The notes under the pieces were generated by a model that saw only the letters and a program-made list of their open reading frames with translations, did no database searches and had not been told where the DNA came from. Of a DNA stretch of 50,950 bases, positions 29,839 through 44,613 are shown piece after piece. The position numbers were made by a program, and so were the translations under genes. Every line of letters starts with the position of its first letter. Position 1 is the first letter of the stretch. Origin of the DNA: a virus (Duplodnaviria > Caudoviricetes); the IMG/VR virus record IMGVR_UViG_3300025864_000004, positions 1-50,950 of that record, one strand, 5' to 3'.

Positions 29839-29841
29839 TCT

Positions 29842-30045
29842 TTACGGCTTCGCGTTGATAATCTCCATAAATTTGGCCAGCGCAGAACGGAATCCAATGG
29901 ACAGAGCACCGATCTGAACAATCAAAAGGCCCAGGTGGTCCGGGTTTGGTACGATCTTCTCGTAAGCAAGCACGCCGTAGACAATGGAAACCACGGCGAT
30001 GATGTAGGTCTTGTTGCCGGACAGAAAGTCGGACAATTGCTTCAT
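29842..30045 (-). CDS. Holin-like membrane protein
   Basis: Two hydrophobic segments; LSGNKTYI motif; downstream of the amidase. Confidence 0.6.
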   Translation of the reverse strand: MKQLSDFLSGNKTYIIAVVSIVYGVLAYEKIVPNPDHLGLLIVQIGALSIGFRSALAKFMEIINAKP

Positions 30046-30326: not shown

Positions 30327-30624
30327 CAGGCTGTCTGCATCGCTGGGAAGTAGCTGATGCACGCGCAGACACCCTTGCCCAGGTGCTCCGCTGCCGGGCA
30401 CCCATTCTGTCCGTGCCGACAGGTGCGGCACACGTCAGGGTCCTTGACGTAAGGGCGGGGCCTGGGTTTTGCTACACTCTTCACTCGTTCACCTGTTCCT
30501 TGCGGAGATAGTCCTTGGTACAGCCGTGCCACGCTAACCTACACTGCTTGGTGACTTCGCATTTGCCGATAGGCCGTTCCTCCTGCTTGAAATACATGCA
30601 TGTCAAGCACTCTTTACGCTTCAT
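30326..30624 (-). other. Two small Cys-rich ORFs (30481-30624 and 30326-30484)
   Basis: MKRKECLTC...; VKSVAKP...CRTC; coupled. Confidence 0.5.
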
Positions 30625-31448
30625 AGTCGGCCCTCCACGTGGACTTTGTTCCGAATAGGCGTAAAGACGAGGCGGGGAGTGAGCAGGACCGTGGGGCTGT
30701 AGTCCTTGGCCTCGCCGTAGCAGTTACGATCTTTGGCGTAGGTTTGTAGGTACGATGCTGAGTGGCAGACCCAGCTCACCCGGTCCACGAGGTCCTCTAC
30801 ATTCTTACGTCGCGAGAGACTGGCAACGGGCTGCAAGAAGCAGCGGTGAGAGTGGCCCCTGACCAACAGGTCAACATCCTTGAAGTGCGTGAGCTTCTTG
30901 GTCATGCTGGTGATCCCAGCCCCGTCTGACTGCGGCACCGCCGACCCGTGAGCACTGTTGATTACGAACTCGGCAACGTGCTTGTTCTTGTCCTTGAACT
31001 GGAGCGTCGTGGTACACATTCCTTCGCTATATACATCCTCGATGCCCATTCGCTGACACATGTCACGACCCACCTCGGTGCCGTTCCACTTGTCGAGATA
31101 CTCCTCGTGGTTGCCTCGGTGGAATACCAAACACTTTCCGGCAATAGGACCGAAAAACTCTGCTCCATCACGCTTCACCTCGTCACTCATTTTGTCGGTT
31201 CGCTCTGGGGGGATGATGCTGTAGTCGATGGCCTTGCTGTCCCAGCGGCGTGAGTCCTTCGGATCAATGCAGTCATGGGAATCACCCGCCTGTATCCAGA
31301 GAGCGTGGGAGTCGCTCAGGATGGAGTCGCGCACCATGTTCATGCGACCCTTGTCGGCGTTGACGTTGCCCCTGTGCTGGTCCCCGAACAGGGTGAGGGT
31401 GAAGACATCTCCGGGCTCATAGTTGATTACTTTTGTGATGAACTTCAT
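30621..31448 (-). CDS. Metallophosphoesterase
   Basis: GDQH, GDSHD, GNHE, AHG, GHSH. Confidence 0.88.
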   Translation of the reverse strand: MKFITKVINYEPGDVFTLTLFGDQHRGNVNADKGRMNMVRDSILSDSHALWIQAGDSHDCIDPKDSRRWDSKAIDYSIIPPERTDKMSDEVKRDGAEFFGPIAGKCLVFHRGNHEEYLDKWNGTEVGRDMCQRMGIEDVYSEGMCTTTLQFKDKNKHVAEFVINSAHGSAVPQSDGAGITSMTKKLTHFKDVDLLVRGHSHRCFLQPVASLSRRKNVEDLVDRVSWVCHSASYLQTYAKDRNCYGEAKDYSPTVLLTPRLVFTPIRNKVHVEGRL

Positions 31449-31642
31449 CAGTCGAAGTCGCGACCAGCGACCATCTTCTCGGGCCGTGGCTTTCTACAAG
31501 CCGGGTCCTGATGGTCAGTAAAGAACGCACACTCCATAGGGCTGGGCTCCCCCCAAAGCTCGCGATACCCACGCATGGCAAGCACTATGAACGCGCACTT
31601 GTGGTGGTGGGCGCAGCACTGCTCACAGTGGATTAAGCTCAC
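31448..31642 (-). CDS. Small Cys-rich hypothetical protein
   Basis: Coupled; CEQC...C...C. Confidence 0.5.
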   Translation of the reverse strand: MSLIHCEQCCAHHHKCAFIVLAMRGYRELWGEPSPMECAFFTDHQDPACRKPRPEKMVAGRDFD

Positions 31643-32346
31643 TGCGTGATCTTGCCGAAGTGATAGAACTTTCCGGGACACGCCGTGCTGTTCCCGCTCA
31701 TGTTCTTGTGCTGCCAGTCAGGTCGTCCGTACTTCTTGTTCAGGTAGCGGTGGACTGCCTGCGCGGCCTTGAGCTGCGCGGTCGGCATGTCATCGTGTGC
31801 CTCGTAGTTCCCCTCAAGACAGACGCCGATGCAATCGTTGTGGCCGAGGCAGTGAGCGCCCATGGTGTTCTCGGGGCGACCGGCGTAGACCTTGCCGTCG
31901 CGGCGGATGTAAAGGGTGTAGGCGATGCCGCGGTCTCCAATCTTCACGTGGTAGGCGTGAATCTCCTCGGGGCTACCAAATCCGGCGGCGTGATGCCAGA
32001 CGGTGCCCGGAGGACCGCCCCGCCGCGCGACCGGCGCACCGTTCCATTTGTAGTCCGGATGGATGATGTGGAGCGGAGGAAGCAGGTTCGGGAACAACTG
32101 GGCCACCAGCTCCTTCGTCTTCTGCGTCGACTGCAACACCGGCTTGCCGTGCTTGTGCATGTGTCCAGAGACACGCCATGCTAGCGTGCGCTTCCCCGTG
32201 CCCCACACGGGGACTAGCGTACTCACCTTGGGTACGGCTATCGTCCCCCGCGTACACCCAAGGTGGTTCTCGGCATAGATCAGCATCTTCTTCGTTGTGG
32301 CAATGTTCGTCGGCACAAGCATCCTCCCTCTAGTTTGTGTTGACAT
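31639..32346 (-). CDS. Endolysin, N-acetylmuramoyl-L-alanine amidase (Amidase_2)
   Basis: WHHAAG, YIRRDG...GRP, GAHC, IGVCLEGNY, HK...TACPG. Confidence 0.92.
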   Translation of the reverse strand: MSTQTRGRMLVPTNIATTKKMLIYAENHLGCTRGTIAVPKVSTLVPVWGTGKRTLAWRVSGHMHKHGKPVLQSTQKTKELVAQLFPNLLPPLHIIHPDYKWNGAPVARRGGPPGTVWHHAAGFGSPEEIHAYHVKIGDRGIAYTLYIRRDGKVYAGRPENTMGAHCLGHNDCIGVCLEGNYEAHDDMPTAQLKAAQAVHRYLNKKYGRPDWQHKNMSGNSTACPGKFYHFGKITQ

Positions 32347-32647
32347 TCAGAATTTTGTGGCGAGCCTTGTGACACGGCCTGCACAGGACAACGCAAGCCT
32401 CCAGCTCCTCTTCGAGTGAATCGATGGAGAAGTGATACATCCGGGATATGTTGTATCTCTTGGTGGACGGATCGACATGGTGATGTTCCAGCAAGCCCTC
32501 GTGCGTCTCGCAGTCCTCGCAGCCGCTGACAGTTCTCAGTATCTGGAGCCATTCGGCGAACTCTGCGTACTCCCCCTTGTCCTCCTCCCGGTGTTCTACG
32601 CGATAGGCTCTACTGTAAGCACGATGCACTACGCTACACTGTGGCAA
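32330..32647 (-). CDS. HNH endonuclease
   Basis: GCEDC...HHHVDP..KRY...CVVLCRPCH; paralog of 12407 and 44296. Confidence 0.8.
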   Translation of the reverse strand: MPQCSVVHRAYSRAYRVEHREEDKGEYAEFAEWLQILRTVSGCEDCETHEGLLEHHHVDPSTKRYNISRMYHFSIDSLEEELEACVVLCRPCHKARHKILNVNTN

Positions 32648-32816: not shown

Positions 32817-33173
32817 CTATTGGCTGAGCAGGATGATGATCGTGACTGCGGCGGCGGCGGTGGAGATGGCGAACCCAACGCCGTAGAGGGTGGCCTTACT
32901 ACCCTCTCCACGACCCGCACCCTTCTCCGCGCGGGTACTTAGGTCGCTGATCCGTTCGTCCTGTTGTGCTGAGCGAGCGGAGGCGAGAATCTCAGCCTTG
33001 TCGTTGGCCTTCTCTGCCGCCGTGAGGGCGAGGCCGGTGGCGTCCTCCTGAGCCTTGAATCGGTCCTCAATGCGAGCCCATTGAGCCTCGGAAACGTCCT
33101 TGAGCGCTTCTACCGCAACCACGAGCGATGCCACCCGCGCGACCATCTCTTCTCTGAATGCCTGCTCCGTCAC
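32817..33173 (-). CDS. Coiled-coil protein with C-terminal TM (lysis-associated?)
   Basis: Heptad-rich with hydrophobic C-terminus. Confidence 0.7.
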   Translation of the reverse strand: MTEQAFREEMVARVASLVVAVEALKDVSEAQWARIEDRFKAQEDATGLALTAAEKANDKAEILASARSAQQDERISDLSTRAEKGAGRGEGSKATLYGVGFAISTAAAAVTIIILLSQ

Positions 33174-35137
33174 GACTGCTCCCGAACGACGATCTTGGCC
33201 AAGCCGCTCGGACCCTCGGAGGAGGAGGTGGGCGCAGGCGTGAACTCCACTGTCTCGATTGCTCCTTGGTAGACACCGGCGAACCTATCCTCAAAGGTGG
33301 CCCGCTCGTTGGCGGTGGCGTAGAGGAACCTCAGCGCCGTCTCTGGGTCCCCCCCCCACTTACCAGCGTTCGCCCCGCTCCTGCAATCAAGAGAGTAGGT
33401 GTGCTTCTTGTTCTTTACGAAGTTCCAGATGACGTTGATACCGTGAACAAGCGGAGAGATAGCCTTGGTGTAGTCAGGGGTCATCCCCATAGTCGTCTCG
33501 ATGGAGTAGCCCTGTTGGTCAATCGGGAAGCGGGTTTCCTGCGGACTGTAGGCTTGTCCATTGGCTGTACCGTACACACCGTCTATCAGCCAGCTCATAG
33601 GTCTGACGGTAGCCCCGTCTGGAAGTACGTCGTGCGACACTGAGACGTACCTGAAGTCCTTCTTCATTGAGCCGGTGTGGAATGTGGTCGGTGACTGCGT
33701 GATCCAGCCGATGTCGTTGTATCCACCAGCGGTTAGCGCCCAGCCGACACTGTGGTTGTAGAGAACCAGGCCCGCCGTCCCGGCAGTCGTCACGTTGACG
33801 GGGATAGAAAAGGTCGTATCGCTTACCCTCGTTGCCACGTATGAGCCGTTGATGAGGGGCACGGAGCCCACGCTTCCAGCTATCACTACCACCTGAGCCG
33901 TGGCGGCTGGAATGCCGTGGGCTGCTGACGTGGTGACAATGGTTGGGTTAGCCAGAGTGTTGCCCGTGATGGTGAGAATCATGGCGTCCTCACCTTTGGA
34001 GTACGGAGCAAATAGCCTTCCCGCTCGATAGGCGAGTGAGGGGCGGAAGATACTCGTGCTTAGTGATGGAGAAGTCGCGACAGCATCGGCAGTCTTATAG
34101 CGTATGATAACGACGCCCGAGCCACCCGCACCACCGGCGTACTGCGCACCCGTCCCGCCACCCCCACCTCCGGTATTGATGATTCCTGGGTTTCCCCAAC
34201 CCTCATACGGACTTCTACCCGCACCCCCGCCGTGCCGTGCCCCACCACCGGAACCCACGCCGAACATACCGCCGCCGCCGCCGCCTGCGTAACCCACCAT
34301 TTGACCGGACATACCGCTGACAAATCCAGTCCCACCGTCACCAGCTTTTCGCGGAGTGGTGGAGAATGTGCCATTGGGGCTGTAGGCGGTCCCATTCGCA
34401 TTTGTTGCATACGCCCTAACGTAGTAAAGCGTGGATGGTTCCAGTCCGGTCTGAGTAAATGAGAACTCTCCAACCCCCCCCGCACCCCCAACGGTGCTTG
34501 CCCCCGAGTTCGGAAATTTAGCGACACAAAAACCCACGGCTGAAATAGCCGATCCCCCATCGCCCCCAACATTTCCCGCCAACGAAACAGTCGTAGATGT
34601 CGCTCCAGAAAAGGTGACATTTACTACATTCGTCGGAACAGTTGTTCCATTGGGAGCCGGAGGAGGGGGAGGAGCTGGAGCGACGTAGGGCTCATACGTT
34701 ATGCTGACCGTTATCTGGTCAATATGGACGTTGACCGCTGCTCCTGTAGTTCTGCCGACATCCACCCCGAGGCTTAGATAGCCCGGATCATTCGCCTGTG
34801 CGGGGGTACACAGGGTCCTGTAAGCGCCATCACTTACCCATCTTCCCGATACGGCACCCGTATCGTAGGCGATGGTCGACCCTTGGAGACTAAGGTATAT
34901 GTAACTTCCCGTATTACTTCCCCACCAATAAGCAGCCCCAGAAATCCCAGTAATGGTGGCGTTGAGGGGTATGGAGAAGCCGAAGTTGGAAGAGATCGCA
35001 GTGTTCGCTGCATCACCAGCCCGAAGATTGCAGGTAGCGAGATAGGAGTCTCTATTCTGAAGGAAACTTGGGCTGAAGTTGGTCCACCGTGAACCGGGAA
35101 TTGTCGAACCAGCGGTCCTAGTTACCGTTACTGACAT
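33170..35137 (-). CDS. Tail protein: domain X + FN3-like + Gly-rich C-half + probable nozzle C-terminal part
   Basis: WTN/FGFSIP domain; YYVRAYATN..GTAY; GGSGVVIIRY; FCCH-like insert; GWITQS...KKDFRYVSV. Confidence 0.8.
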   Translation of the reverse strand: MSVTVTRTAGSTIPGSRWTNFSPSFLQNRDSYLATCNLRAGDAANTAISSNFGFSIPLNATITGISGAAYWWGSNTGSYIYLSLQGSTIAYDTGAVSGRWVSDGAYRTLCTPAQANDPGYLSLGVDVGRTTGAAVNVHIDQITVSITYEPYVAPAPPPPPAPNGTTVPTNVVNVTFSGATSTTVSLAGNVGGDGGSAISAVGFCVAKFPNSGASTVGGAGGVGEFSFTQTGLEPSTLYYVRAYATNANGTAYSPNGTFSTTPRKAGDGGTGFVSGMSGQMVGYAGGGGGGMFGVGSGGGARHGGGAGRSPYEGWGNPGIINTGGGGGGTGAQYAGGAGGSGVVIIRYKTADAVATSPSLSTSIFRPSLAYRAGRLFAPYSKGEDAMILTITGNTLANPTIVTTSAAHGIPAATAQVVVIAGSVGSVPLINGSYVATRVSDTTFSIPVNVTTAGTAGLVLYNHSVGWALTAGGYNDIGWITQSPTTFHTGSMKKDFRYVSVSHDVLPDGATVRPMSWLIDGVYGTANGQAYSPQETRFPIDQQGYSIETTMGMTPDYTKAISPLVHGINVIWNFVKNKKHTYSLDCRSGANAGKWGGDPETALRFLYATANERATFEDRFAGVYQGAIETVEFTPAPTSSSEGPSGLAKIVVREQS

Positions 35138-36891
35138 TAGCTTGCCTGCCCCGCTTGTCCAGCAGCACCCTTGCCGCCGCCTCCACCCGCAGGATACGGT
35201 GCGACGATGCTGCCCGAGCTACCGCCCGCGTGGCCCTCAGTGGCAGCGCCACCAGCATGTTGCGCGGCGCTATCGGCACCGCCACCTCCGCCGGAAGCAC
35301 CCGCACCACCCTGCGCTGCATTCTTGCCACCATACCCCCCGCCATTTGCGGTGTATGTACCGAAAACGCTGGCGACCCCAACAGTCCCATTTGCAGTCAG
35401 TACCGCGCCACCGGCACCACCGTCACCAACAGTAACCGTCATACTCCCGCTGACTGCCTGTACTCCCGAGAGGACACTGCCCCCGCCGCCGCCACCAGAG
35501 GAGCCCCCGCCGCCGCCGCCGACCACAAGAACCTCTGCGTTGATGGGGGATAACAGGTTGCCGTACTTATCAACACGGGGAGGACATACCAGCGTCCCCG
35601 AACCAGTAAAGGTGTGAATCGTGTACTCTCCAACGGTTGTGATGACGCCTCCAGTTGGAAGTACGTCGCTTGCCGTCTCGGTGGTGATTCGCGCATCGGA
35701 CCCCGCGCCGATGAAGTCGAAGACGTGGGAGTGTCCACCGTCGTCAATGTCCCAGCGATAGCAATCCCTCTCGGTGAGGAAGTACTCGTCCTTGACGCCG
35801 ATACATGCCGCCCTGATCCTGTTGTCGTTGCTAACGTCTGTGGGAATCTCCGTCTTCTCGGGCTCGTCGCCGATCTCAAACAGAAGGGCCGACATTCCAC
35901 CGGCAAGTCTGTAGACAGCTCCCTTGCCCACATTGGGGATTTGGCTCTCGAAGTATCCGCCAACATCAACGTTGCCAAGGTAGCCCACGGCACAGGTAGC
36001 GATGTAGCTGGCGGGGAACTCAGCACTCTGTTCCGTGGTCATGGTCGAAGCCGCCGAGTCGTAGGTCAGCTTGTAGACATACGACCTACCATTCTGTGCG
36101 ACTACCCAGTACACGGCGTTCCCAGCCGACACCAGGGCGATAGACAGGTTTGTGCCGTTGAGGAAGGCGGGCGTCTTCTGCGTGTAAACCCCGGTTGTGG
36201 AGTCCACCAGTCCCGCCCCGAGGGCTGTCGCACCGAAGAGGAAGCCTCCGTTATAGGCCAGATGTTCGATGGGAGAGGTCGTGCCGGTGGTCCCGAACTT
36301 CGCGAAGGTTCCGACCCCCGCGCCTTTGTTGGACCAGATGCCCGTTGATGCACCGCCGGGAACACTGAAGTAGAGGCTTGTGCCGTCAGTAGTAAACCCA
36401 CCTATCGTAGAACTGATCGCGGTACCGCCAATGGTGGCGCTACTCCACGTTGCGCCGTCATCGGGGGTGTATTTGAGTGTGCCGAGAGAGCCCCCCAGCC
36501 AGATGTAGCCTATGGCCGAGAAGATAGGACCAGCGGTGTTCATTGCCTCGGTGCTCACCACGGGACGAAGCAGCTTGAGCTGCCCCTTTGTGGAAACGTC
36601 AACGTAGGAGCTTTCAAGGTATCGGGAGTATACCGAGGACTCTGAGTCTAGGGTCTTCTGGCCCTCACCCTGAATCCAGTCAAGGTGCGTAATGGCCTTG
36701 TCACCCTCCGTGTCCCTTACGTCGTACTGCCCACCCGCCTGAGTTGGCGTGGACATAGCGGCATTGAGGGGAACATTGGGGGAGGTTGCGGCATGGACGA
36801 CGGCAGGCTGAGTCGGATCGAACACGTAGTCGACGGACGTATCGTCCTGGTCCGTGATGCGGAGGTCGGCACCCCTAAGCGTGTCGGTCAC
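35137..36891 (-). CDS. Tail nozzle-like protein, N-terminal part, plus Gly-rich domain N-half
   Basis: DWIQGEGQ, VDVSTKGQLKL, propeller-like repeats; then YTIHTFTGSG...VLVVGGGGGG. Confidence 0.75.
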   Translation of the reverse strand: MTDTLRGADLRITDQDDTSVDYVFDPTQPAVVHAATSPNVPLNAAMSTPTQAGGQYDVRDTEGDKAITHLDWIQGEGQKTLDSESSVYSRYLESSYVDVSTKGQLKLLRPVVSTEAMNTAGPIFSAIGYIWLGGSLGTLKYTPDDGATWSSATIGGTAISSTIGGFTTDGTSLYFSVPGGASTGIWSNKGAGVGTFAKFGTTGTTSPIEHLAYNGGFLFGATALGAGLVDSTTGVYTQKTPAFLNGTNLSIALVSAGNAVYWVVAQNGRSYVYKLTYDSAASTMTTEQSAEFPASYIATCAVGYLGNVDVGGYFESQIPNVGKGAVYRLAGGMSALLFEIGDEPEKTEIPTDVSNDNRIRAACIGVKDEYFLTERDCYRWDIDDGGHSHVFDFIGAGSDARITTETASDVLPTGGVITTVGEYTIHTFTGSGTLVCPPRVDKYGNLLSPINAEVLVVGGGGGGSSGGGGGGSVLSGVQAVSGSMTVTVGDGGAGGAVLTANGTVGVASVFGTYTANGGGYGGKNAAQGGAGASGGGGGADSAAQHAGGAATEGHAGGSSGSIVAPYPAGGGGGKGAAGQAGQAS

Positions 36892-37397
36892 GAGCCCGCC
36901 TCATAGGTCGCGGTAAACGATATACCGTCTCCAACCCCAAAAGTAAACGGATGTGTAGCATCTACAACCGAGTGGTAGTTGTAGGTCGGTTCTTGGTAGA
37001 TTAGTTGGAACTCTTTGTTCACTCCGTCATCGTGGTTGATTAAGAGTGCGCCCGTCTGGGAACTACTTCCCGAGTTAAGGAGGTAGGCGGTCCCGGCCAG
37101 AATAGGTACACCACTGGATGGAGCAGCAACGGGGGCCGAAAGGCCAACAGTCCCACTGATGGATGTGCTGCTACCAAGGACCAGGGTGAGATATGCGTGA
37201 ACTAGTTTCCCAATCTGTGTATATCGAGCAACTAGAGTACCGTTACCCAGTGTTAGGTTGGTCCATGTGGGTGTCCACGCCTGAAAGACGCCGGGCACGG
37301 TGGGTGTCACCGGAATGGGGTTCCCAACATATCCATGGGCGGGGCAAATCTCCCCGGCGAGGGGGCGTCCGCAATACTTGCACTTCTCGTTGCTCAC
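36888..37397 (-). CDS. Fibre/receptor-binding-like protein with N-terminal Zn ribbon
   Basis: CKYC...CPAH; WTPTWT...ARYTQIGKLV...ISFTATYE. Confidence 0.7.
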   Translation of the reverse strand: MSNEKCKYCGRPLAGEICPAHGYVGNPIPVTPTVPGVFQAWTPTWTNLTLGNGTLVARYTQIGKLVHAYLTLVLGSSTSISGTVGLSAPVAAPSSGVPILAGTAYLLNSGSSSQTGALLINHDDGVNKEFQLIYQEPTYNYHSVVDATHPFTFGVGDGISFTATYEAGS

Positions 37398-38227
37398 CGA
37401 CTCATCCAAGGCGGCATACGACTGGCGGCAATCTGCAACTGGTAGCGCATCATCCATGCCTGCGTGCCGTCAGCTATCTGACGCGGCGAGAGTGTTCCGA
37501 CGCCCTGCGTGTTGACGGCAATGTCGGAGCGGATACGGGGAGCTATCTTCTGAGTCAGGAGGTACCAACATGCGTAGGAGATGATCGGGTCCTTAGCCCG
37601 CGTCGGCAGACCGGCGGTCGTCTCTAGTGTGCTGGTGGTGGCGGTCAGTAGGGCGGGGCGGTTGATGCAGCGCACCCGCATGAACCCGGTGGGGGCACCG
37701 AAGAAGCGCAGTGTCAGATGGTCCCCGTCGCCCAGCCATTCGTACTTGCTACGCGCCATCTTCGTGTAGGCCCCGGTGGCGTCGGCGCGAGTCTCAACGG
37801 CGGTGACGAACTGCGTCGCCGGGTCCAGCGCATACTCATAGCTGTCGGGCACGATGGCGATACTGGTGTCAGCCTTGGCTGTGTAGAAGGCTGGAAAGAG
37901 GTTGTCGATAGCGGCGTTGATGGCCTGTTCCACGGTACGGGTCCGCCAGTACAGGTACTTGTAGGTTACGCGCACGGTGACGCCACCAGACGGAGCAGCC
38001 GTGAACGTGATGGTGCCCGTCTCGTAGTCCATCGTGAAGGCCGTGGTCACGGCGTCATCGAGCGTAACGACCAGTGTGCCGGTAGTGTCCGAAACTACGT
38101 AGCCCATGGGGGCGATGAGATAGCTGCTCGTGGTACCGTCTGCCACCGTCTCCGCTAGCCCGTTCATGGCGACATTCTCAAGCTCATCGTTCACCAGACT
38201 AACGAGGTCGTTTCGAGTTACACTCAT
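37394..38227 (-). CDS. Head-tail adaptor / tail tubular A-like protein
   Basis: Helical ends (TRNDLV, QAINAAI, IISYAC) with inserted beta domain; position before nozzle. Confidence 0.65.
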   Translation of the reverse strand: MSVTRNDLVSLVNDELENVAMNGLAETVADGTTSSYLIAPMGYVVSDTTGTLVVTLDDAVTTAFTMDYETGTITFTAAPSGGVTVRVTYKYLYWRTRTVEQAINAAIDNLFPAFYTAKADTSIAIVPDSYEYALDPATQFVTAVETRADATGAYTKMARSKYEWLGDGDHLTLRFFGAPTGFMRVRCINRPALLTATTSTLETTAGLPTRAKDPIISYACWYLLTQKIAPRIRSDIAVNTQGVGTLSPRQIADGTQAWMMRYQLQIAASRMPPWMSR

Positions 38228-40395
38228 ATCTTCGCGACCCCCTTGTTTGGTAATAATTCTATTTCGTTGCTTATGTCTATTATACCACGACTATTCGTAA
38301 GTGGTCTTAGCGTACCCGCTATATCCATTCCACCTGCACCGCCTATTTTCTTGTGCGGCCTAAAGTGTGTGAAGACGGTACCGCTACCGGCTACCGAGGT
38401 CTTCGCCGTGGTCACTACACCGATGCCAAGGCCCGGTGGGCGGCCAGTGCCGATCACACCAGCAGCGCCCGTGGTCAGCGAGCCGATGCCGTGAACCCCT
38501 TCCCTGCCAGTCCCGGCGGTGGCCATGGCGGCAGTGCGGAGTGAGCCCGCGCCCGCGACCTTCTCTATCCCCGTCCCGATAGCCCTTGCCTTGGCAGTGG
38601 TGACGACTCCTACACCGTGATTCTGGAGATGGCCCGTACCGACGATTCGTGGTGCGCCGACCGTCAGCGCTCCGGTGCCGCTAGTCTTCTCGCTGCCGAT
38701 GCCCGCGATGCGAGCGGTACCCGTCGTGAGTGCGCCGACGCCCTCTGTGGACGACGTGACGGTGGCCTCGCCTACGCCAGCAACAGCAACCTTGCCCGTT
38801 GTGACGGTGCCCCAGCCCGAAACATCGGTACCGTCCCCGAAGAGGTCGAAGCCGTCAGGGATAACCAGCACGTCGCTTATGTAGTAGATGCCCTCGGGGA
38901 AGTAGAGCTGCGTGACACCGAGCGACACTGCTGCGGAGACAGCATCCTCGATGGCCGCAAGGTCATCAGTCGCACCGTCGCCAACAGCGCCGTAGTCCTT
39001 GACATTGACGGCATCGAGCCCGATCCCGGCGAGACTTGTCGCACCGACCCTTAGCGCACCGGCACCCGATATTGCGCCGGGCTCCGTCGCCGCGCCAGAG
39101 CCCGCAACCCGTGCGGCTCCGGCGGAGAGAGCGCCCGTACCAACAGCCCTGAGCTTCCCGACGCCCGCAACAGCCGATGCCGCTGACCTGAGCGTACCGC
39201 TGCCGACGAAGTGCGCGCTGCCGACGCCGGTAGCCTTCATCGCCGCAGCGGTGAGCGCACCCGCACCCGCAAAGTGGACCGCGCCGCTGCCGGTGGCCGT
39301 AGCCGTCCCGGTCGTCGCGGTACCAGTGCCGATGTTCCTGAGCTTGCCTGCCGCGCTGAGGCGAGCGGCCCCAGTCATCAGCGTGCCGCTGCCCGCCGTC
39401 TTCTCGCTGCCAACGCCTGCGGCCGTGGCCCTGGCTGTCGTGAGCGCACCAGAGCCGGAGACCTTCGGCGTGACGGTACCAGCCCCAGCGACGGACGCCT
39501 TGCCTGTCGTCAGTGCTCCCGTACCGGAGACGACCAGCTTTCCCGCTCCCGCCACAACCGCAGCGGCTACCAGCAGCACGGCAACGCCCTTGATGATGTG
39601 CTTGCCTGTGCCTGCGGCCTTGGCCGCGCCTGCGGTGAGCGTGCCCGTGCCCGAAATCTTTACGGTGCCGCTACCCGCTATCGCCGCAGCCCCGGCAGTG
39701 ACGGCACCGCTGCCGCCCGGCGTACCCCCTATTGTGTCGAAGTCGAGTTCGTCACCGTAGGCGGTGCCGCTAGAGTTCGTCGCGTAGGAACGGACGTGAT
39801 AGGTGGTGTCGGCGTCGAGCCCGGTCAGCTCGCTGGCGAAGTTGACGATGACGTTGCCGGTTCCCGCAATTGCAGCCTTGCCGGTGGTGAGCGTCCCGCC
39901 TCCGCCAAGGATAGTGTAGGTGACGGTGACTCTCACGAAGTCCAGCGACCACACCCTAGATGTGGTGGCGCTACCGGTGGCTGCTCGCGTCCTTACTCTC
40001 AGGCCTGTCGACCCGGTGGCGTTCAGTTCGCCTGCGGTCGGCAGGCTGGTGGTAATGGTCTGCGTGACCGTGTACTCGGTGTTGGTAGCAGCCGGTGTGC
40101 CCGTCGCCTCAGTACCTACGGCGGTAGTGCCGCCCTTGAAGAGCTGCACGCCGAAGACATTGCCTGTGATGAGGGCGCTGATCTTGTAGATGGACGCAAC
40201 GGCAACCTGGCTGATGATTGCGCCGGTAGGAATGGCGAACCCGAAGTCGGAGTAGTAGTTGAGGTCCGACTCATTCCTGACTACTGAGGTGATGGTGGCG
40301 AACGATGTGTCGTCAGCGTACCCGTAGGTCGGGTTCGTCCAGGCGACTGCCCCAGACTGGTATCCGGCTGGATAGTTGGGGCCGACGCTAGCCAT
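38224..40395 (-). CDS. Gly/Ala-rich repeat fibre protein with embedded half-domains
   Basis: ~20-aa G.G.LT.G.A...AG.G repeats; domain X; FN3 C-half; NVKDYGAVGDG segment. Confidence 0.8.
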   Translation of the reverse strand: MASVGPNYPAGYQSGAVAWTNPTYGYADDTSFATITSVVRNESDLNYYSDFGFAIPTGAIISQVAVASIYKISALITGNVFGVQLFKGGTTAVGTEATGTPAATNTEYTVTQTITTSLPTAGELNATGSTGLRVRTRAATGSATTSRVWSLDFVRVTVTYTILGGGGTLTTGKAAIAGTGNVIVNFASELTGLDADTTYHVRSYATNSSGTAYGDELDFDTIGGTPGGSGAVTAGAAAIAGSGTVKISGTGTLTAGAAKAAGTGKHIIKGVAVLLVAAAVVAGAGKLVVSGTGALTTGKASVAGAGTVTPKVSGSGALTTARATAAGVGSEKTAGSGTLMTGAARLSAAGKLRNIGTGTATTGTATATGSGAVHFAGAGALTAAAMKATGVGSAHFVGSGTLRSAASAVAGVGKLRAVGTGALSAGAARVAGSGAATEPGAISGAGALRVGATSLAGIGLDAVNVKDYGAVGDGATDDLAAIEDAVSAAVSLGVTQLYFPEGIYYISDVLVIPDGFDLFGDGTDVSGWGTVTTGKVAVAGVGEATVTSSTEGVGALTTGTARIAGIGSEKTSGTGALTVGAPRIVGTGHLQNHGVGVVTTAKARAIGTGIEKVAGAGSLRTAAMATAGTGREGVHGIGSLTTGAAGVIGTGRPPGLGIGVVTTAKTSVAGSGTVFTHFRPHKKIGGAGGMDIAGTLRPLTNSRGIIDISNEIELLPNKGVAKI
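38279..38288 (-). promoter_or_regulatory. Extended -10 promoter upstream of adaptor gene
   Basis: GTGGTATAAT ~50 nt upstream of 38227. Confidence 0.5.
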
Positions 40396-41276
40396 CAGTC
40401 GCTCGTGTGGCTATCTGCGATGGTCGGCGTGCCGGTCGTGTTCCAGCAGACTCCACGGGCGGTGATCGTCGCTCCGCCGTCGCTAGTTATGCTGCCTCCG
40501 CTGGTGGCCGAGTCGGCGGCGATAGCGCTGATGGCCGTGGTGGTGAGGGTGGGGGCGCTGGAGTCTGTGCTGGCAGCGAGTACACCGGCTGCGTAGTTGG
40601 CCGCCACGTCGCCCGACGTGAGGGCTGCCGAGTAGAGGCGCAGGGTGGCCGTTGAGTGAATGCAGTAGGTGAGCCAACCGGCATTGGCCCCAAGAGCACC
40701 CTTGATGAAAGCGGCTAGTGTCCCGCCCCCGATAGCAGCAGGTGTGCCAACCCCGGCACCGTCCACATACGCAGTCCAGTAACCGCCGCCTGCCGTGACC
40801 ACGATGTGGTGCATCGCGCCGTCGTCTATTGCTGCCGTCCCGTTCACGATGGCGTCAGTGCTCGCCACCACGAAGTGCGTCTCTAGATGATGCGAGGTAA
40901 CGCGGATGTCGACGGCGTTGGCGTAGCTGGAATCACACCAGCCCAGTATGCCGAGGCTTCCACCTGCGTTGGACGGTAGCGCCGACCACGTTTCAATAGA
41001 GAACGTCTTGGTCGCGAACGTGCTGTTGAGACCCAGGGTCAACGGTACGTCGTCGTTCGTGGCGTCGAACACCATCCGGTAGGGATCGCCAGATGTGCCG
41101 GACCCCGCCCATCCCGAGGAAGTCGTCCAACCGAATGTCGTAATCGAGCCGCTGTCGTAGCTGCCCTCCAGGTCGTCCCACACACTCGTTGGGTCGGCGT
41201 TGTTACCGGGCGCGGTACCAGCCTTAGCGAGCCTGCCGACGTACTCGGCGACCAGGTTGGCAGTGACGAGTGCCAT
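40395..41276 (-). CDS. LamG/ConA-like domain protein ending in an FN3 N-half
   Basis: FSIETW, HHIVVT, YVDG, LRLYSAALT; ends SDGGATITARGVCW...SHTSD. Confidence 0.8.
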   Translation of the reverse strand: MALVTANLVAEYVGRLAKAGTAPGNNADPTSVWDDLEGSYDSGSITTFGWTTSSGWAGSGTSGDPYRMVFDATNDDVPLTLGLNSTFATKTFSIETWSALPSNAGGSLGILGWCDSSYANAVDIRVTSHHLETHFVVASTDAIVNGTAAIDDGAMHHIVVTAGGGYWTAYVDGAGVGTPAAIGGGTLAAFIKGALGANAGWLTYCIHSTATLRLYSAALTSGDVAANYAAGVLAASTDSSAPTLTTTAISAIAADSATSGGSITSDGGATITARGVCWNTTGTPTIADSHTSD

Positions 41277-42535
41277 CAGGGGCTCACGGTGTTGCCTGAG
41301 ACGGTGTTGCCTGAGCCGCTGACCGTCCAGTTGTCGGTGGGATCGCCGCCGGTCACGGTGTTGCTGGTGATGACGCAGTTGTCGCCGGTCGACTGGAAGA
41401 CGTAGGCACCTGCGTCGGCGGAGTGCGTGATGACGTTATCGGTGATGGTGCAGCCCGCGCCGCCATTGTTGACGAAGTAGGGCGACCATGAGCTGTGAAC
41501 GATGCTGTAGGGATCGTCGGTGCCGTCGATTGTGCAGCCGTGCATGGTGTTCGGGCCGGGAGCCTGGAAGTAGACCACCGCTTCCCTGCCGTCCGAGAAT
41601 GTGCAGTCCTGAACGATAACGTTGGCGGCACCCTTCTCTACGATGACGTTACCGTTCCACTGCGGGCTGGGACCGTAGCCGTGCCCGTAGAAGCGGCAAT
41701 TCTTCACCGTGCTGTAGCCTCCGCTCGGTGCCCCGTTGTCGGTGCGAGCCATGCCCGAGTAGTCGATGCTGGCGCACTCCCCGGGGTAGAATGTGCAGCC
41801 GTCGAAGTCGATGTTGTAGAAGGCGTTCTGGCTGCGCGTCGCGTTGGTGTAGTCGACCCACATCTCAATGGCGAAGTGGTGGCCGTCGATGGCCCACTCG
41901 CAGTTGTTGAAAGCGATGTCGTGGACGCTGGTCTCGCCGGATAGGGGGCTGGCCTTGATGGCCACGTTGACAAAGTTGTCCGCCTCATGGCCGCTGGCCG
42001 GTGTGCCTGCGTTGGCCTCGAAGTAGCAGTTGTCGAAGGTAATCCCAGAGACCGTCCAGTTCACGCCCTGCCAGGGGCCTCCGATGCAGACCATGATTGC
42101 GGGGTTCGGGTTATTCCCACCCACGTCCGTGCCCCCGCCCCCCGTGAATCGGCATCTCGCAAAGGTAGTGCCGCTGATGGTCTTGAGGGAGAAGCATTGG
42201 CCCGTCGCCCCGAGCTTGAGGTCGGTGAACGAGCCGTTACTGCCCGCGCTGATGGGACCCTTGATCCAAGCCGTCGATCCTGAGCCGATCAGGTTGGCAT
42301 AACTGGGAACGGTGAGCCGCGAGGCCAGATAATAGTCGCCCGGCGGGAAGTAGACGGGAGCGCTGCCAGCCGCCGTGATGGCGCTCTGGATGTGGGCCAC
42401 GTCATCGGTCGTGCCGTCGGCGTGCGCCCCGTAGTCCATGACGTTGAAGAACGGCACGAGTGTGTCGATGATGATGTCGGTGAACGTGCAGCCAGCGCCG
42501 TACTCCACGGTCCCGGCGATCCGTGATAGTGCCAT
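41276..42535 (-). CDS. Right-handed beta-helix (pectate-lyase-like) putative depolymerase
   Basis: NVMDYGAHADGTTDD, VYFPPG.Y, repeated I.F.NC.F / ITDN.I coils. Confidence 0.85.
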   Translation of the reverse strand: MALSRIAGTVEYGAGCTFTDIIIDTLVPFFNVMDYGAHADGTTDDVAHIQSAITAAGSAPVYFPPGDYYLASRLTVPSYANLIGSGSTAWIKGPISAGSNGSFTDLKLGATGQCFSLKTISGTTFARCRFTGGGGTDVGGNNPNPAIMVCIGGPWQGVNWTVSGITFDNCYFEANAGTPASGHEADNFVNVAIKASPLSGETSVHDIAFNNCEWAIDGHHFAIEMWVDYTNATRSQNAFYNIDFDGCTFYPGECASIDYSGMARTDNGAPSGGYSTVKNCRFYGHGYGPSPQWNGNVIVEKGAANVIVQDCTFSDGREAVVYFQAPGPNTMHGCTIDGTDDPYSIVHSSWSPYFVNNGGAGCTITDNVITHSADAGAYVFQSTGDNCVITSNTVTGGDPTDNWTVSGSGNTVSGNTVSP

Positions 42536-42879
42536 TACGAAGTCGCTCCCTGGAAGTGTGTATTGGCGGGCACCTGCAATGTGCTGCCCAGTTTGTAAAT
42601 ACCTACGGGGAAGAAAACGACTGCGCCCAGCGCCGCAGCGACGGTCGCGCGTATTGCAGACACGTCGTCGCTCACGCCGTCACCCCTGGCTCCGTAGTCC
42701 TTGACGTTGCATCCGACGGGGGTAGGCGTGGGCGTTGGGGTAGGGGTAGGCGTCGGAGTGGGGTGCGGCGTGGGGTGCGGCTTCTGGGGCTTCGCGGACG
42801 CAGATGCCCCGAACGCCGCAACGCCCCCGACGACGATCCCGACGTAGCTGATGAACTGCCTGCGCGTGATGCAGGCCAT
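42535..42879 (-). CDS. Tat-signal protein with PT linker and truncated pectate-lyase-3 cap
   Basis: TRRQFI + hydrophobic core + ASA; (PT)n; NVKDYGARGDG. Confidence 0.75.
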   Translation of the reverse strand: MACITRRQFISYVGIVVGGVAAFGASASAKPQKPHPTPHPTPTPTPTPTPTPTPVGCNVKDYGARGDGVSDDVSAIRATVAAALGAVVFFPVGIYKLGSTLQVPANTHFQGATS

Positions 42880-42882
42880 GCC

Positions 42883-43323
42883 TTACGCCTGGTCTATAGG
42901 CACACTCAGGGTGAGGGCAGTGATGTCGACCTGAGAACCCGTGGCGATGACGGCGCTGTTGAGCACGAGGTCGTCGCCCGCTGTTCCGGAACACGTGCCC
43001 TGTAGCACGACGGCAGCCGAGCCGTTGATGACGCGGAAGTGGGTAGCGGCTGAGGCGTTGCCGGTGGCGTGCGGGTCGGAGACCGTAGCGGTGAGGGCGG
43101 CGTCCGAGGTGTGCGTGCCTGCCGTGTAGGAAGCAGCACCCCAGAATGCGCCTGCGGCGGCGCATGTGGCGACTTCCGTCGCGGCTGCGTCGTTGGCGTG
43201 GGTCGGCTCGGCGCCGGTGTAGATGACGAGAGTGCCGTTGCCGCCGGAATCGGCGAGGTCGGCGATGGTGTTGCAGGCAGCAGTTGCAGCAGCCTGGCTT
43301 ACTCTACAGTGGTGGGCGGCCAT
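42883..43323 (-). CDS. Virion structural protein, hypothetical
   Basis: AAGGAG RBS; LVIYTG..P, ATHFRV pattern typical of small phage structural proteins. Confidence 0.65.
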   Translation of the reverse strand: MAAHHCRVSQAAATAACNTIADLADSGGNGTLVIYTGAEPTHANDAAATEVATCAAAGAFWGAASYTAGTHTSDAALTATVSDPHATGNASAATHFRVINGSAAVVLQGTCSGTAGDDLVLNSAVIATGSQVDITALTLSVPIDQA

Positions 43324-43445
43324 TATTTATCACTCTCCTTTGAGTTGTCTGTCTTCGGCGGCGTGACGATTCCCACGCCTTTCATCTTTACCTTGAAGCC
43401 CCCAAAAAGCGGGATCACCGGGGCCTCTTTCTTTTCGTCTGCCAT
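43323..43445 (-). CDS. Small hypothetical protein (40 aa)
   Basis: MADEKKEAPVIPLFGG...; coupled by TAATG. Confidence 0.5.
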   Translation of the reverse strand: MADEKKEAPVIPLFGGFKVKMKGVGIVTPPKTDNSKESDK

Positions 43446-43446
43446 G

Positions 43447-43782
43447 TCAGCCCCTTCCGATGAAGCCGCCGACCGTTACGAAGGCGCCCACGCTGGCACC
43501 ATCGCTAGTCAGGGTGAGAGCCGTGTTCGAGGCCAGCTTCTTGGGAGTCTTGAACATGACGTTAGACGCGCCGTTTATGCCGAGAGCGAGTTTCCACTTA
43601 GCGGTGGTGGTGCCCTGTTCAAGGGTGAAGGTTCTGGCGGTCGCCCCACCGAAGACCCCGATGTCCGTAATGTAAATCGCGAGACCCGTCCCCGGAGCGG
43701 CGACGAAGCTGGTATCTGCCCAAGCCGTGTCCTGTCCAAGCTCCACGCTGAACTCGTTGTTATTCCCGTGCTGTTGACTCAT
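43447..43782 (-). CDS. Small beta-rich virion protein
   Basis: AAGGAGG RBS. Confidence 0.7.
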   Translation of the reverse strand: MSQQHGNNNEFSVELGQDTAWADTSFVAAPGTGLAIYITDIGVFGGATARTFTLEQGTTTAKWKLALGINGASNVMFKTPKKLASNTALTLTSDGASVGAFVTVGGFIGRG

Positions 43783-43845
43783 GTTCCCTCCTTGAGACCC
43801 TCGCGCTGGAACTTCTCAGCACCAGCAGGGTCGAGTTGAAGTAGT

Positions 43846-43874
43846 AGGGCGGGGAGCTTTACGCCCCCCGCCCT
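43846..43874 (-). terminator. Hairpin after the capsid operon
   Basis: AGGGCGGGG...CCCCGCCCT. Confidence 0.6.
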
Positions 43875-43881
43875 TGTAGTT

Positions 43882-44292
43882 TCAGTAACCGATTGCGAAG
43901 CCGGTCACAACGAAGCCGTCAACGACCTCGGTATCGTCGGCCGTCTTCACAAGGCCGGTAGTGCCGGCCGCAGCGTAGGTGGCCGCATAGACGTGGATCA
44001 CTCCGGTCGCTGGAGCGCCGTTTGTGGCGGGAATGTAGACTGCCGGATATGCCAGGTCGCCAGTAGTCCGCGCCGGATCGTGGAGCGCACTAACAACAGC
44101 CATAAGCACCTTGTTGGGAAACAGCGCCGACAGGTTGAGAGTAAATCCACCAACGGGGACCCTCCCCGTACCAGCGGTAGCCGTGAATGCCTTGATGGAA
44201 GCGCCAGGCATGTTCTTGATGCCGCCACAGGACTGGACCAGCTTATTGCTGAGACCAGTAACCTCTGCGACTGTCAGGGTAGTGTTAGCCAT
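43882..44292 (-). CDS. Probable capsid decoration protein
   Basis: 136 aa beta-rich, after MCP, before terminator. Confidence 0.55.
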   Translation of the reverse strand: MANTTLTVAEVTGLSNKLVQSCGGIKNMPGASIKAFTATAGTGRVPVGGFTLNLSALFPNKVLMAVVSALHDPARTTGDLAYPAVYIPATNGAPATGVIHVYAATYAAAGTTGLVKTADDTEVVDGFVVTGFAIGY

Positions 44293-44295
44293 GAC

Positions 44296-44613
44296 TCAGA
44301 CCTCCACCTTCATAGTATTCATAGTGCCAACCTCCTGTTTTGAATGGTATTCAGCGTGACAGTTTCTACAAAGCACAATGCACTTTGCTATTTCTCTGTT
44401 CAGCTTTTCCCAACTTACGTTGTTGTTCACAAGAACAGAGACAGCCTTGGCCTTCTTCTCGTCGCCCGTGTGGTGAAAGTCGAGGGCATCCGAACAAGCC
44501 TCGTAACCACACCACACGCACCCCGATTCCATCTTTACTTCCTTGATGTAAGCACGGCGAAGCAGTCGTCTTTCGTTGTTTGCAGCGCTCTGCTTATCCG
44601 AAGGCCAAGGCAT
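44296..44613 (-). CDS. HNH endonuclease
   Basis: GCVWC...LDFHH...EIAKCIVLCRNCH. Confidence 0.85.
   Translation of the reverse strand: MPWPSDKQSAANNERRLLRRAYIKEVKMESGCVWCGYEACSDALDFHHTGDEKKAKAVSVLVNNNVSWEKLNREIAKCIVLCRNCHAEYHSKQEVGTMNTMKVEV

Follow-up and report, generated by a model that had tools for sequence, protein, structure and literature searches.

Can a protein domain that is divided between two phage genes come together again in the tail, or are half domains beside a gene boundary the residue of recombination? The question is raised by the window analyzed here, a stretch of 50,950 nucleotides (50.9 kb) that is a complete phage genome with an integrase gene. A sequence-only reading had proposed that three virion-protein domains, one FN3-like, one Gly-rich and one a beta-helix cap, are broken at overlapping stop and start codons, and that their halves refold in trans to fasten modules onto the virion. 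By synteny, the genes of the candidate nozzle pair, 584 aa and 655 aa, come after those for the major capsid protein and a candidate adaptor of 277 aa; the features of interest are:

42535..42879, minus strand: 114-aa ORF; signal, Pro/Thr linker, beta-helix cap and first rung; its stop overlaps the next ATG (TAATG)
41276..42535, minus strand: 419-aa beta-helix protein of tailspike/depolymerase type, with its own complete cap and helix (PF12708, Beta_helix)
40395..41276, minus strand: 293-aa protein; Laminin_G_3 domain, then the FN3-like N-half; TGATG junction
39901..40395, minus strand: WTN domain of the 723-aa protein (residues 1-165), an N-terminal beta-sandwich, from alignment
39733..39852, minus strand: FN3-like C-half in the 723-aa protein (residues 182-221), from the HMM; proposed 'socket'
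38224..39732, minus strand: remainder of the 723-aa protein; two 21-residue repeat arrays and a beta-helix cap fragment
35137..36891, minus strand: 584-aa protein, predicted N-part of a split nozzle; N-domain and first two thirds of Gly_rich_2; TAATG overlap of its stop with the following start
33170..35137, minus strand: 655-aa protein, predicted C-part of the split nozzle; WTN, FN3-like domain, last third of Gly_rich_2, middle domain and C-domain

An FN3-like domain cut in one loop

The FN3-like domain was described by an HMM of 98 positions built from 19 intact copies. With this model the proposed break is borne out: the C-terminal end of the 293-aa ORF corresponds to positions 2-54 (i-E 1.2e-17) and residues 182-221 of the 723-aa protein to positions 57-96 (i-E 5.5e-12), the cut falling in a single loop and each half being recognized over its own part of the model only. 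A separate N-half profile located the N-half at window 40398-40556 (E 1.8e-26), where it ends exactly at the stop. The intact paralog announced in the 655-aa protein is indeed there and covers positions 5-96; Pfam fn3 scores 21.2 bits on this protein, under its cut-off of 25. The domain type can be recognized as GVCWNTTG ... YYVRAYATN, and no PDB relative of it was found by sequence at E <=1.

Residues 85-225 of the 293-aa protein form a lectin-like Laminin_G_3 domain. No close LamG relative of this protein keeps an N-half, which is absent from L046 and L047 (33% identity). The 723-aa protein opens with a beta-sandwich (residues 1-165) for which 'WTN' is our working label; stand-alone viral clusters of this domain, 163-192 aa long and without a Pfam family, exist in the Atlas. 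Its 21-residue repeats form two arrays (17 motif matches, spacing mostly 21), interrupted by a cap fragment at residues 463-525 (window 38821-39009; PF12708 positions 2-65, 56.1 bits). We regard the 723-aa protein as a candidate rope or scaffold.

The same loop is cut in other phages

Orphan N- and C-halves co-occur in five phage lineages (the window, L002, L007, L009 and G001), and the cut lies in every case from HMM positions 54-55 to 57-60. In L002 and G001 the match of some C-halves begins earlier (position 20 or 41-42), with repeats aligning loosely. No uncut lone half was found at any locus examined. The cargo differs among the four other lineages that share this split, and the N-half is always terminal: it forms the N-terminus of beta-helix proteins in L002, L007 and L009, and the last residues of a protein in the window and, twice, in G001, which holds two N-halves and three C-halves. 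The C-halves of the window, L009 and G001 sit within repeat arrays. A 2-nt spacer is present at the FN3 junction of L002, and hundreds of residues or whole genes separate the halves in L007 and L009. In L041, a 65-residue insertion occupies the same loop within one chain, indicating that this loop tolerates insertions.

The arrangement in G001 is the closest to ours, as its 264-aa protein ends in ...ADSHTHD, with a stop overlapping an ATG (TAATG), and is followed by a protein with WTN, 21-residue repeats and a C-half in the same order as in the window. The 293/723 junction is thus found in a second complete phage, homologues ending at the same residue, and the 1389-aa G001 homologue of the 723-aa protein shares the 21-residue repeats. 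Identity between the window and G001 is 57-70% for the halves, 32% for WTN and 24-28% for the cargo domains; by this sequence measure conservation is higher in the FN3 halves than in the neighbouring domains. A tree groups the four split N-halves weakly (support 38/0; 40% of bootstrap trees).

A candidate tail nozzle in two polypeptides

The two proteins that share the Gly-rich domain are organized as follows:

35692-36891, minus strand: beta-propeller-containing N-domain of the 584-aa protein (residues 1-400)
residues 401-584 of the 584-aa protein, minus strand: first two thirds of Gly_rich_2
34688-35137, minus strand: WTN domain of the 655-aa protein, a distant copy of the 723-aa WTN
34352-34645, minus strand: intact FN3-like domain of the 655-aa protein
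34082-34351, minus strand: last third of Gly_rich_2 in the 655-aa protein, ending in a GVVIIRY strand
between the last third of Gly_rich_2 and the C-domain, minus strand: small middle domain of the 655-aa protein
33173-33772, minus strand: C-domain of the 655-aa protein

The claim that this domain is split holds, both from Pfam and from an unsplit relative. Residues 451-583 of the 584-aa protein match positions 16-148 of 226 of Gly_rich_2 (PF21722) with 36.5 bits (cut-off 24.3), and the 655-aa protein matches positions 68-226 with 23.0 bits, just under that cut-off. The close relative P0177 (980 aa) has a complete Gly_rich_2 in one chain, without WTN or FN3, and is 65% identical to the 584-aa and 48% to the 655-aa protein; the window pieces map onto it end to end, abutting at about P0177 residues 567-574 with no overlap and no loss.

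A search with the 584-aa N-domain among 1.84 billion representatives returned 104 matches, most of them 800-1143 aa long with the domain N-terminal. Four of the 35 matches at E <=1e-30 (P0070, P0073, P0074 and P0085; 580-607 aa) stop inside the Gly-rich domain just past P-A-G-G-G-G-G, as the 584-aa protein does, and split proteins only 43-54% identical to its N-domain still terminate at this motif. Proteins of the partner type were also found (P0171-P0176, P0178). Contiguous homologs, which the sequence-only reading had suggested looking for, thus exist for both domains: the 19 intact FN3-like copies and, in addition to P0177, the single-chain proteins P0001 (1054 aa), which joins the 584-aa N-domain (47% identity) to the 655-aa C-domain (44%), and P0067, which is 67% identical to the 584-aa protein over residues 4-398 of the latter and whose C-terminal 300 residues align by eye with the 655-aa protein. 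Against four relatives, dN/dS was 0.17-0.30 for the N-part of the Gly-rich domain and 0.25-0.41 for its C-part; both pieces are therefore under purifying selection.

The nozzle fold, in which a beta-propeller is accompanied by platform and tip domains, was tested on P0067, standing in for the window's two chains. Its AF2 model (pLDDT 79.6, pTM 0.71; only 30-55 pLDDT in a central mini Gly-type domain) matched in a Foldseek search of the PDB the Pa223 tail (9nwi_Y, E 1.2e-10, TMt 0.58), T7 gp12 (9jyz_P, 7boy_s), P22 gp10 (8u10_1, TMt 0.56) and Sf6 (7sg7_S); in BFVD its matches included proteins annotated as P22 Gp10 and as tail tubular protein B. From this model and the homology at both ends, the 584-aa and 655-aa proteins are predicted to make up a podovirus tail nozzle in split form, equivalent to T7 gp12/P22 gp10.

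A duplicated beta-helix cap

The third case stood only in part. The 114-aa ORF does end in a cap, since residues 58-112 (window 42544-42708) hold the cap and first rung of a pectate-lyase-type beta-helix, matching PF12708 positions 3-61 of 213 (47.1 bits). As read from the translation, it begins with a signal at residues 1-29, in which we take a twin-arginine-like motif to be present, followed by the Pro/Thr linker. The supposed continuation in the next gene amounts to residues 1-28 of the 419-aa protein, which weakly resemble the rung expected after the cap; it rests on one 18-nt repeat (16/18 matching), collinear with two cap repeats at a spacing of 255 versus 263 nt (repeats D1, D6 and D19: 263/263/255 nt). 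The 419-aa protein, whose relatives are P0032-P0035, has its own PF12708 match (positions 1-165) plus Beta_helix. Because the PF12708 parts 3-61 and 1-165 overlap rather than complete each other, we rejected this pair as a complementary split: it is a tandemly duplicated cap, the first copy of which is cut by the gene boundary.

A complex predicted from two FN3-like halves

Structure prediction of the 293-aa/723-aa pair gave the result that the sequence-only reading anticipated, one FN3-like domain rebuilt at the interface of two chains, with an ipSAE of 0.73 (runs 0.74, 0.73 and 0.72) against 0.01 for the best of three controls. Among solved complexes 58 of 80 attain this mark, among mismatched pairs 2 of 110, counts that hold only roughly here because our own alignments were used as input, that of the partner drawing on N-halves of intact domains. 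The runs share at least 76% of contacts, with a partner pLDDT of at least 78. Residues 181-224 of the 723-aa protein face partner residues 9-64, and the tightest contacts are between the F strand (199-207) and the C strand (42-51), which is the native C-F strand pairing. Such a model may nonetheless put together whichever two halves of a well-known Ig/FN3-type fold it is given.

Gene junctions

The overlaps described at the breaks are present, TAATG at 35137 and 42535 and TGATG at 40395 and 41276, but they are ordinary: eight of the nine consecutive junctions from 43323 to 32817 overlap, including that at 41276, which splits nothing. Stop/start overlaps here are ordinary translational coupling. 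As the genome was assembled from a metagenome, the junctions might be assembly indels or chimeras; the chance of this is negligible, since a Logan contig of run X1 (7258 bp, depth 22.8) spans 38000-43400 with no differences and no gaps, and contigs of run X2 also show no differences over this interval (both runs may be source samples, which makes this an independent assembly, not independent data). Moreover, the stop overlapping an ATG at the 584/655 junction is kept, as TAA or TGA, in all six related loci that span it, and the 293/723 junction is kept in G001. The FN3-like and Gly-rich splits are real: the coding sequences of these domains were divided within the domain, and the division has been inherited. 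The sequence-only reading also raised the alternative of a single chain made from both ORFs by a programmed frameshift (-1 or +2) at their overlap, and at every TAATG/TGATG junction the downstream frame is indeed shifted by -1/+2 from the upstream frame. We consider it highly improbable, as an in-frame X XXY YYZ slippery heptamer occurs within 60 nt before the stop at none of the nine junctions, upstream sequences differ among relatives, and the stop varies between TAA and TGA while the overlapping ATG stays. The spacer in L002 and the non-adjacent positions or genes of the halves in L007 and L009 also argue against it, and a fused chain would still hold the inserted domains inside the split domain.

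A proposed plug and socket, and alternatives

Sequence and modelling together make it probable that the halves of the FN3-like and Gly-rich domains reassemble non-covalently, by fold complementation, and hold tail parts together. Trans refolding thus gains computational support for these two cases (paired halves, conservation, selection, complex model) and loses it for the cap; what is shown is how the halves are built, that they recur and are conserved, that an unsplit relative is modelled with a nozzle fold, and that the complex model rebuilds the domain, and from this we infer binding in the virion. In the nozzle, a loop of the peripheral Gly_rich_2 domain would have received a cassette that held a beta-sandwich and an FN3-like domain together with a stop/start junction. 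This insertion would leave the 584-aa protein without the last third of the domain, including the closing strand, both of which the 655-aa protein would supply; the N- and C-terminal parts of the nozzle would likewise need to pack against each other, a packing that relatives achieve inside a single chain. The FN3-like domain may be a portable connector. Its plug would be the N-half, with three strands in about 54 residues, placed right at the end of a cargo protein, a lectin-like LamG protein here and a beta-helix tailspike elsewhere; its socket would be the C-half, some 40 residues lying within a tail-associated scaffold, the 21-residue-repeat 723-aa protein here and the N-terminus of a nozzle elsewhere. 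Pairing would rebuild the domain and hang the cargo on the tail, and the overlapping stop/start codons would let a single mRNA give both partners.

Complementary halves are the automatic result whenever a domain receives one insertion, so finding them together does not by itself show function. The half domains could accordingly be scars of boundary-carrying cassettes inserted or recombined into permissive loops, the halves being tolerated but unpaired and attachment occurring via other surfaces: comparison with P0177 reveals precisely this kind of insertion at the Gly-rich break, the FN3 loop of L041 accepts one within a single chain, the G+C content of 63-65% at 38-44 kb versus 53-60% elsewhere suggests recent acquisition, and the cap fragments look like scars. 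We find this unlikely, given that a junction made of D, a stop overlapping ATG, and WTN is common to the window and G001, the halves being far closer in identity than WTN, that selection acts on both Gly-rich pieces and that diverged split proteins still end at the same motif. Unpaired half beta-sandwiches would also expose hydrophobic cores and should be lost, and the complex model passes its controls. It is conceivable, but rather improbable, that each half docks onto another partner, the N-half onto the 21-residue repeats or the C-half hairpin onto a small fibre protein. The location of C-halves inside repeat arrays and the unequal numbers of halves in G001 would fit, and rope-type docking by beta-sheet augmentation is documented (PMC13730344), fibre dimers of phage A1002 extending the rope beta-sheet in this manner. 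Against such docking, one and the same loop is cut every time, the two pieces add up to exactly one domain, and the best-scored modelled contacts are the native C-F pairing.

Comparison with known systems

The pairing of halves that we favor has counterparts outside this genome. In chaperone-usher pili (donor-strand complementation) and in engineered split domains, of which SpyTag/SpyCatcher is one, strands contributed by another chain fill out an incomplete fold of Ig-like or beta-sandwich type, and CBA120 and G7C have branched receptor-binding protein systems. Pili donate one strand, whereas about half the domain would be supplied in the FN3 case; no chaperone or covalent bond is implied, and the setting is a phage tail.

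According to PMC13352976, the podophages KP32, K11 and KP34 of Klebsiella have branched receptor-binding proteins built on a branching domain and a conserved docking peptide. The likeness lies in a secondary receptor-binding protein hung on a tail-bound primary one via a short conserved terminal element, and in exchangeable cargo. In that account, however, the peptide binds a complete folded branching domain, whereas the window partners would each hold part of one domain, and neither FN3 part should fold alone.

The sequence-only reading knew of no described phage system of this kind, a position now outdated. According to a report of November 2026 (PMC13730344), the nozzle of Pseudomonas podophage A1002 is made of two proteins, gp42 nozzle-base and gp39 nozzle-rope, which fill in each other's missing beta-strands and so complete each other's beta-sheets. 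A1002 and the window (the latter judged from sequence and the model of an unsplit relative) would share a nozzle of two polypeptides, a mid-chain break between N-terminal platform/propeller/tip and C-terminal propeller/platform, and a second protein that opens with extra domains; beta-sheet completion is described for A1002 and proposed for the window pair. The window genes are adjacent, in N-to-C order and with overlapping stop/start codons, whereas gp39 lies upstream of gp42 with fibre genes between, and the break in the window interrupts a Gly_rich_2 decoration domain at the point where a WTN+FN3 cassette is inserted.

The same report (PMC13730344) presents chain-like fibres on rope proteins in A1002 (gp39 with gp40/gp41), GP4 (rope protein with gp80) and VP1. 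If the 723-aa protein acts as a rope, the likeness would be a long scaffold with many docking sites for small proteins by beta-sheet augmentation, and small virion proteins of 111-146 aa encoded beside the array. The A1002 rope has 11 sites in about 270 residues, by our own arithmetic about 24 residues per site, and the window repeat has 21 residues; the FN3 halves differ in kind from rope-strand docking sites as that account gives them. The model of the 146-aa protein matches not GP4 gp80 but the tail-fibre chain 9rkv_A of phage 7-7-1 (E 1.5e-5, TM 0.68/0.70).

An FN3-like domain divided between neighboring genes

The split genes sit in a minus-strand string of virion genes extending from the head gene to position 33170 of the window, itself a complete IMG/VR virus record of 50,950 bases with direct terminal repeats. 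Landmark genes are:

8069-9835, large terminase
12894-13937, integrase
31639-32346, amidase endolysin
44624-45925, major head protein

In the GenBank phage collection, no match was found to the region 33170-43323 (megablast) or to the 584-aa and 655-aa proteins (tblastn; proteins are named here by their length). A sequence-only reading had proposed that three domains are split across gene junctions in this string; this holds for two of them, an FN3-like domain cut between the 293-aa and 723-aa proteins and a Gly-rich domain cut between the 584-aa and 655-aa proteins, and not for a beta-helix cap.

To describe the first case, an FN3-like profile was built from 19 intact copies taken from IMG/VR loci. 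Profile positions 2-54 match the last residues of the 293-aa protein and positions 57-96 match residues 182-221 of the 723-aa protein, while the 655-aa protein carries the full copy that had been cited as the intact paralog. A separate N-half profile places the first piece at 40398-40556, exactly the coordinates given in the sequence-only reading. No sequence relative of the domain was found in the PDB.

Residues 1-265 of the 723-aa protein were modeled in complex with residues 230-293 of the 293-aa protein. The pair scored 0.73 and the highest-scoring of three controls 0.01. In the calibration, a score as high as 0.73 was obtained for 58 of 80 solved complexes and 2 of 110 mismatched pairs; the model used our own alignments and may rely on general knowledge of the fold. 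Contacts agreed by at least 76% between runs, the partner pLDDT was at least 78, and the interface sets the C-half against the N-half with a native-like C-F strand pairing. The model supports binding of the FN3 halves by one another.

Five phage lineages carry the same split

When all fetched loci were scanned with the FN3 profile, orphan halves were found in the window, in loci L002, L007 and L009, and in G001, a second complete phage of which locus L053 is a repeat.

Position of the FN3 halves in the five lineages
The window: N-half ends the LamG protein (293 aa); C-half inside the 723-aa repeat protein
L002: N-half opens a 552-aa beta-helix protein; C-half opens the first half of the nozzle
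L007: N-half opens a 409-aa beta-helix protein; C-half closes the following 461-aa protein
L009 (an otherwise unrelated, podovirus-like contig): N-half opens a beta-helix protein; C-half two genes away, within an 827-aa array of 22-residue repeats
G001: N-half ends two proteins; C-half present three times in a 1389-aa repeat protein

The cut loop is identical in all five lineages, and no uncut lone half was seen among the loci scanned with the profile. The halves of the window and those of G001 share 57-70% identity, versus 24-32% for the neighboring domains. In a tree, four split N-halves cluster (0 of 500 shuffles were as low), with weak branch support. Judging from this distribution, the FN3 split is a recurring device. 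We hold the chances to be evenly balanced that some phages possess a natural, portable two-piece connector, in which an FN3-like domain is cut at one loop, the N-half acting as a plug on exchangeable receptor-binding cargo (lectin-like proteins, beta-helix depolymerases) and the C-half as a socket, in one or several copies, in rope-like repeat proteins or on the nozzle.

No description of a split FN3 connector was found in the literature on tail-fiber strand complementation, on split fibronectin type III tailspikes, or on phage fold complementation (the last by title, among the matches listed). In IMG/VR, a pattern scan for the 723-aa protein and for the LamG part of the 293-aa protein brought up no close relatives, and one metagenome scan returned two loci at 33% identity, both without FN3 halves.

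Two further observations concern these proteins. Among several tandem FN3-like domains encoded at L041 5203-7467, one copy is interrupted by an acidic insertion of 65 residues, precisely at the loop that is cut in the split copies. Different beta-helix proteins of related phages (L002 1758-2912, L006 6777-8624, L008 257-1882) share an opening peptide, MTARLT(A/S)(R/P)R, directly before the cap; it may be a conserved docking peptide, and thus a second mode of attachment in the same lineage.

Nature of the junctions

The stop/start overlaps claimed for the breaks (TAATG, TGATG, TAATG, TGATG) are present. By ORF coordinates, however, such overlaps occur at eight of the nine junctions of the gene string, and they are therefore a mark of translational coupling, not of the splits. 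The sequence-only reading had offered two explanations for the divided domains. Complementation of the halves in trans is supported computationally; the alternative, that recoding at the overlaps joins the ORFs, we consider highly improbable, since no slippery heptamer lies ahead of any of the nine junctions, the sequences upstream of the junctions vary among relatives, and the halves lie far apart in L007 and L009.

Misassembly would be another origin of interrupted domains, and here the evidence argues for real junctions. Contigs built independently from two public sequencing runs match 38000-43400 with 0 differences, although these two runs may be the source samples of the record; a third, X3, held only small shares of this stretch, and no support is drawn from it. 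All six related loci that span the 584|655 junction retain it (protein identity across the set of related loci is 71-83%), its stop being TAA in some and TGA in others while the ATG overlap is constant. The 293|723 junction recurs in G001 (61.6 kb), where a 264-aa protein ends ...ADSHTHD, its stop overlaps an ATG (TAATG), and the next protein has a beta-sandwich domain, 21-residue repeats and the FN3 C-half, the same order as in the window.

In run X1, from the same peat metagenome, a 1200-bp contig (depth 7; record 2) combines the N-half motif with the motif at the end of WTN, our working label for the beta-sandwich domain that opens the 723-aa protein, at a distance of 472 nt; in the window these motifs lie at 40417-40454 and 39914-39951, 465 nt apart. 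This contig may represent a further diverged copy of the 293|723 junction.

A split tail nozzle

The division of the Gly-rich domain was likewise borne out: positions 16-148 of Pfam Gly_rich_2 (PF21722) end the 584-aa protein, and the remainder, up to the closing strand, corresponds to residues 263-352 of the 655-aa protein. A literature search with PF21722 found no papers. A single PHROG family of 1183 positions spans both proteins. Among 1.84 billion representatives, the 584-aa protein's N-domain found 104 relatives, mostly single proteins of 800-1143 aa. The protein P0001 joins this N-domain and the C-domain of the 655-aa protein within one chain. The AlphaFold2 model of P0067, an unsplit relative (pLDDT 79.6), matches the solved podovirus tail nozzles of Pa223, T7 gp12, P22 gp10, Sf6 and PhiM1; it gave no usable structure for the central domain, residues 401-511. 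The 584-aa and 655-aa pair is thus a split nozzle, with its fold as predicted for the unsplit P0067.

In P0177, a close unsplit relative of 980 aa with a complete Gly_rich_2, the 584-aa and 655-aa pieces align end to end, whereas in the window they are separated by the stop/start junction, a WTN domain and an FN3-like domain, which argues that the fission and the entry of a cassette into a loop coincide. WTN stands alone in viral clusters and has no Pfam family, and two other partner proteins, P0176 and P0178, have a different first domain ahead of the same FN3 and Gly C-part. We also considered WTN cassettes as mobile units but dropped this idea, evidence for it being absent. The nozzle split is old, since the upstream half has four diverged representatives with the same terminal motif. 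All segments are under purifying selection (dN/dS 0.08-0.45). The truncated locus L008 (3264-4553) reads the same as P0177 over its last residues; split and unsplit nozzles therefore coexist in closely related phages. Scans of IMG/VR with P0085, one of the diverged split forms, and with P0034, a relative of the 419-aa beta-helix protein, found no relatives, and one with P0070, another diverged split form, found nothing beyond contigs already known.

In Pseudomonas phage A1002, the split nozzle proteins gp42 and gp39 fill each other's missing propeller and platform strands, and gp39 continues into a rope on which small fiber dimers dock at 11 sites by beta-sheet augmentation (PMC13730344, November 2026). 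The window has a second, independent example and a second kind of split nozzle: its two genes adjoin each other in N-to-C order, the break falls in the Gly-rich decoration domain, and an unsplit sister form is at hand, which shows the origin of the fission. Relative to the kind of split nozzle described in 2026, the one in the window is a new variant; the split FN3 plug and socket was not found in print in the literature searched.

Significance for tail assembly

The way in which receptor-binding proteins attach to tails determines which modules phages can exchange, and so affects host-range evolution and engineering. Known fastenings are folded adaptor domains and docking peptides. The most recent is beta-strand complementation in one split nozzle (PMC13730344). 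If the FN3 connector is real, a dedicated split domain would serve as plug and socket for the differing cargo of five uncultured phage lineages, and tail assembly would have a rule that is both new and simple. Exchanging genes that carry the plug at their end or beginning could then give tails new equipment, and the connector would be a natural, non-covalent equivalent of engineered split-domain tags and a ready-made handle for phage host-range engineering.

Repeat proteins and a small virion protein

The 723-aa protein has a strict 21-residue period and a homologue in G001. These repeats are old, since Tandem Repeats Finder did not detect them in the DNA. Long arrays of repeats of 21-23 residues, rich in Ala, Gly, Thr and Ser, follow receptor-binding-type genes in several unrelated phage contigs:

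Long repeat arrays
Window 38224-40395
G001 27454-31500 (L059)
L009 6444-8924
L046 2851-3792
L047 5127-5927

By analogy with A1002 and GP4, these may be rope proteins for chain-like fibers. The period, the G001 homologue and the similar arrays that adjoin small virion proteins in L009, L046 and L047 suggest a rope-type scaffold of that sort for the 723-aa protein. That its cap fragment is a socket for a capless beta-helix was considered and dropped, evidence being lacking.

The model of the 146-aa virion protein (42883-43323; phrog_3758; pLDDT 70.3) has one good PDB match only, 9rkv_A (E 1.5e-5, 27% identity, TM 0.68/0.70), a chain of the tail-fiber entry of Agrobacterium phage 7-7-1. That entry contains long fibers, short fibers and small homodimeric garland proteins, of which chain A may be any (PMC12796354).

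The beta-helix cap and the surrounding block

In the third case, a beta-helix cap (PF12708 positions 3-61) does close the 114-aa ORF, but the 419-aa protein owns a complete domain, and the supposed continuation in it amounts to 28 residues of weak likeness. Cap and first rung form a tandem duplicate (spacings 263, 263 and 255 nt), and an old one, given that the DNA identity of the copies is about 70%. The first copy is preceded by a twin-arginine-like signal and a Pro/Thr linker, an architecture also found in the bacterial relative P0033, and P0034 too has a cap fragment ahead of a full cap. We read this case as a scar left by capture or duplication, and our confidence in a function for it is low. 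At 42793-42879, the start of the ORF encodes TRRQFI, a hydrophobic stretch and ASA, which we take to be a twin-arginine-like signal peptide, and then the linker; it looks like the 5' end of a gene for a secreted bacterial polysaccharide-degrading enzyme.

G+C content is 63-65% at 38001-44000 versus 53-60% elsewhere in the genome, which suggests that the block with the 114-, 419-, 293- and 723-aa genes came in from a source of higher G+C. Between a 277-aa candidate adaptor gene and the nozzle gene lies a 189-aa ORF (36888-37457) with a Cys-rich start followed by a beta-rich domain; it shares its first 64 nt with the 277-aa gene, and it is missing from that position in L003, L004 and L006. The tail-gene block is flanked by two small ORFs (32330-32647 and 44296-44613) whose translations contain paired Cys/His motifs, presumably of the HNH-endonuclease type.
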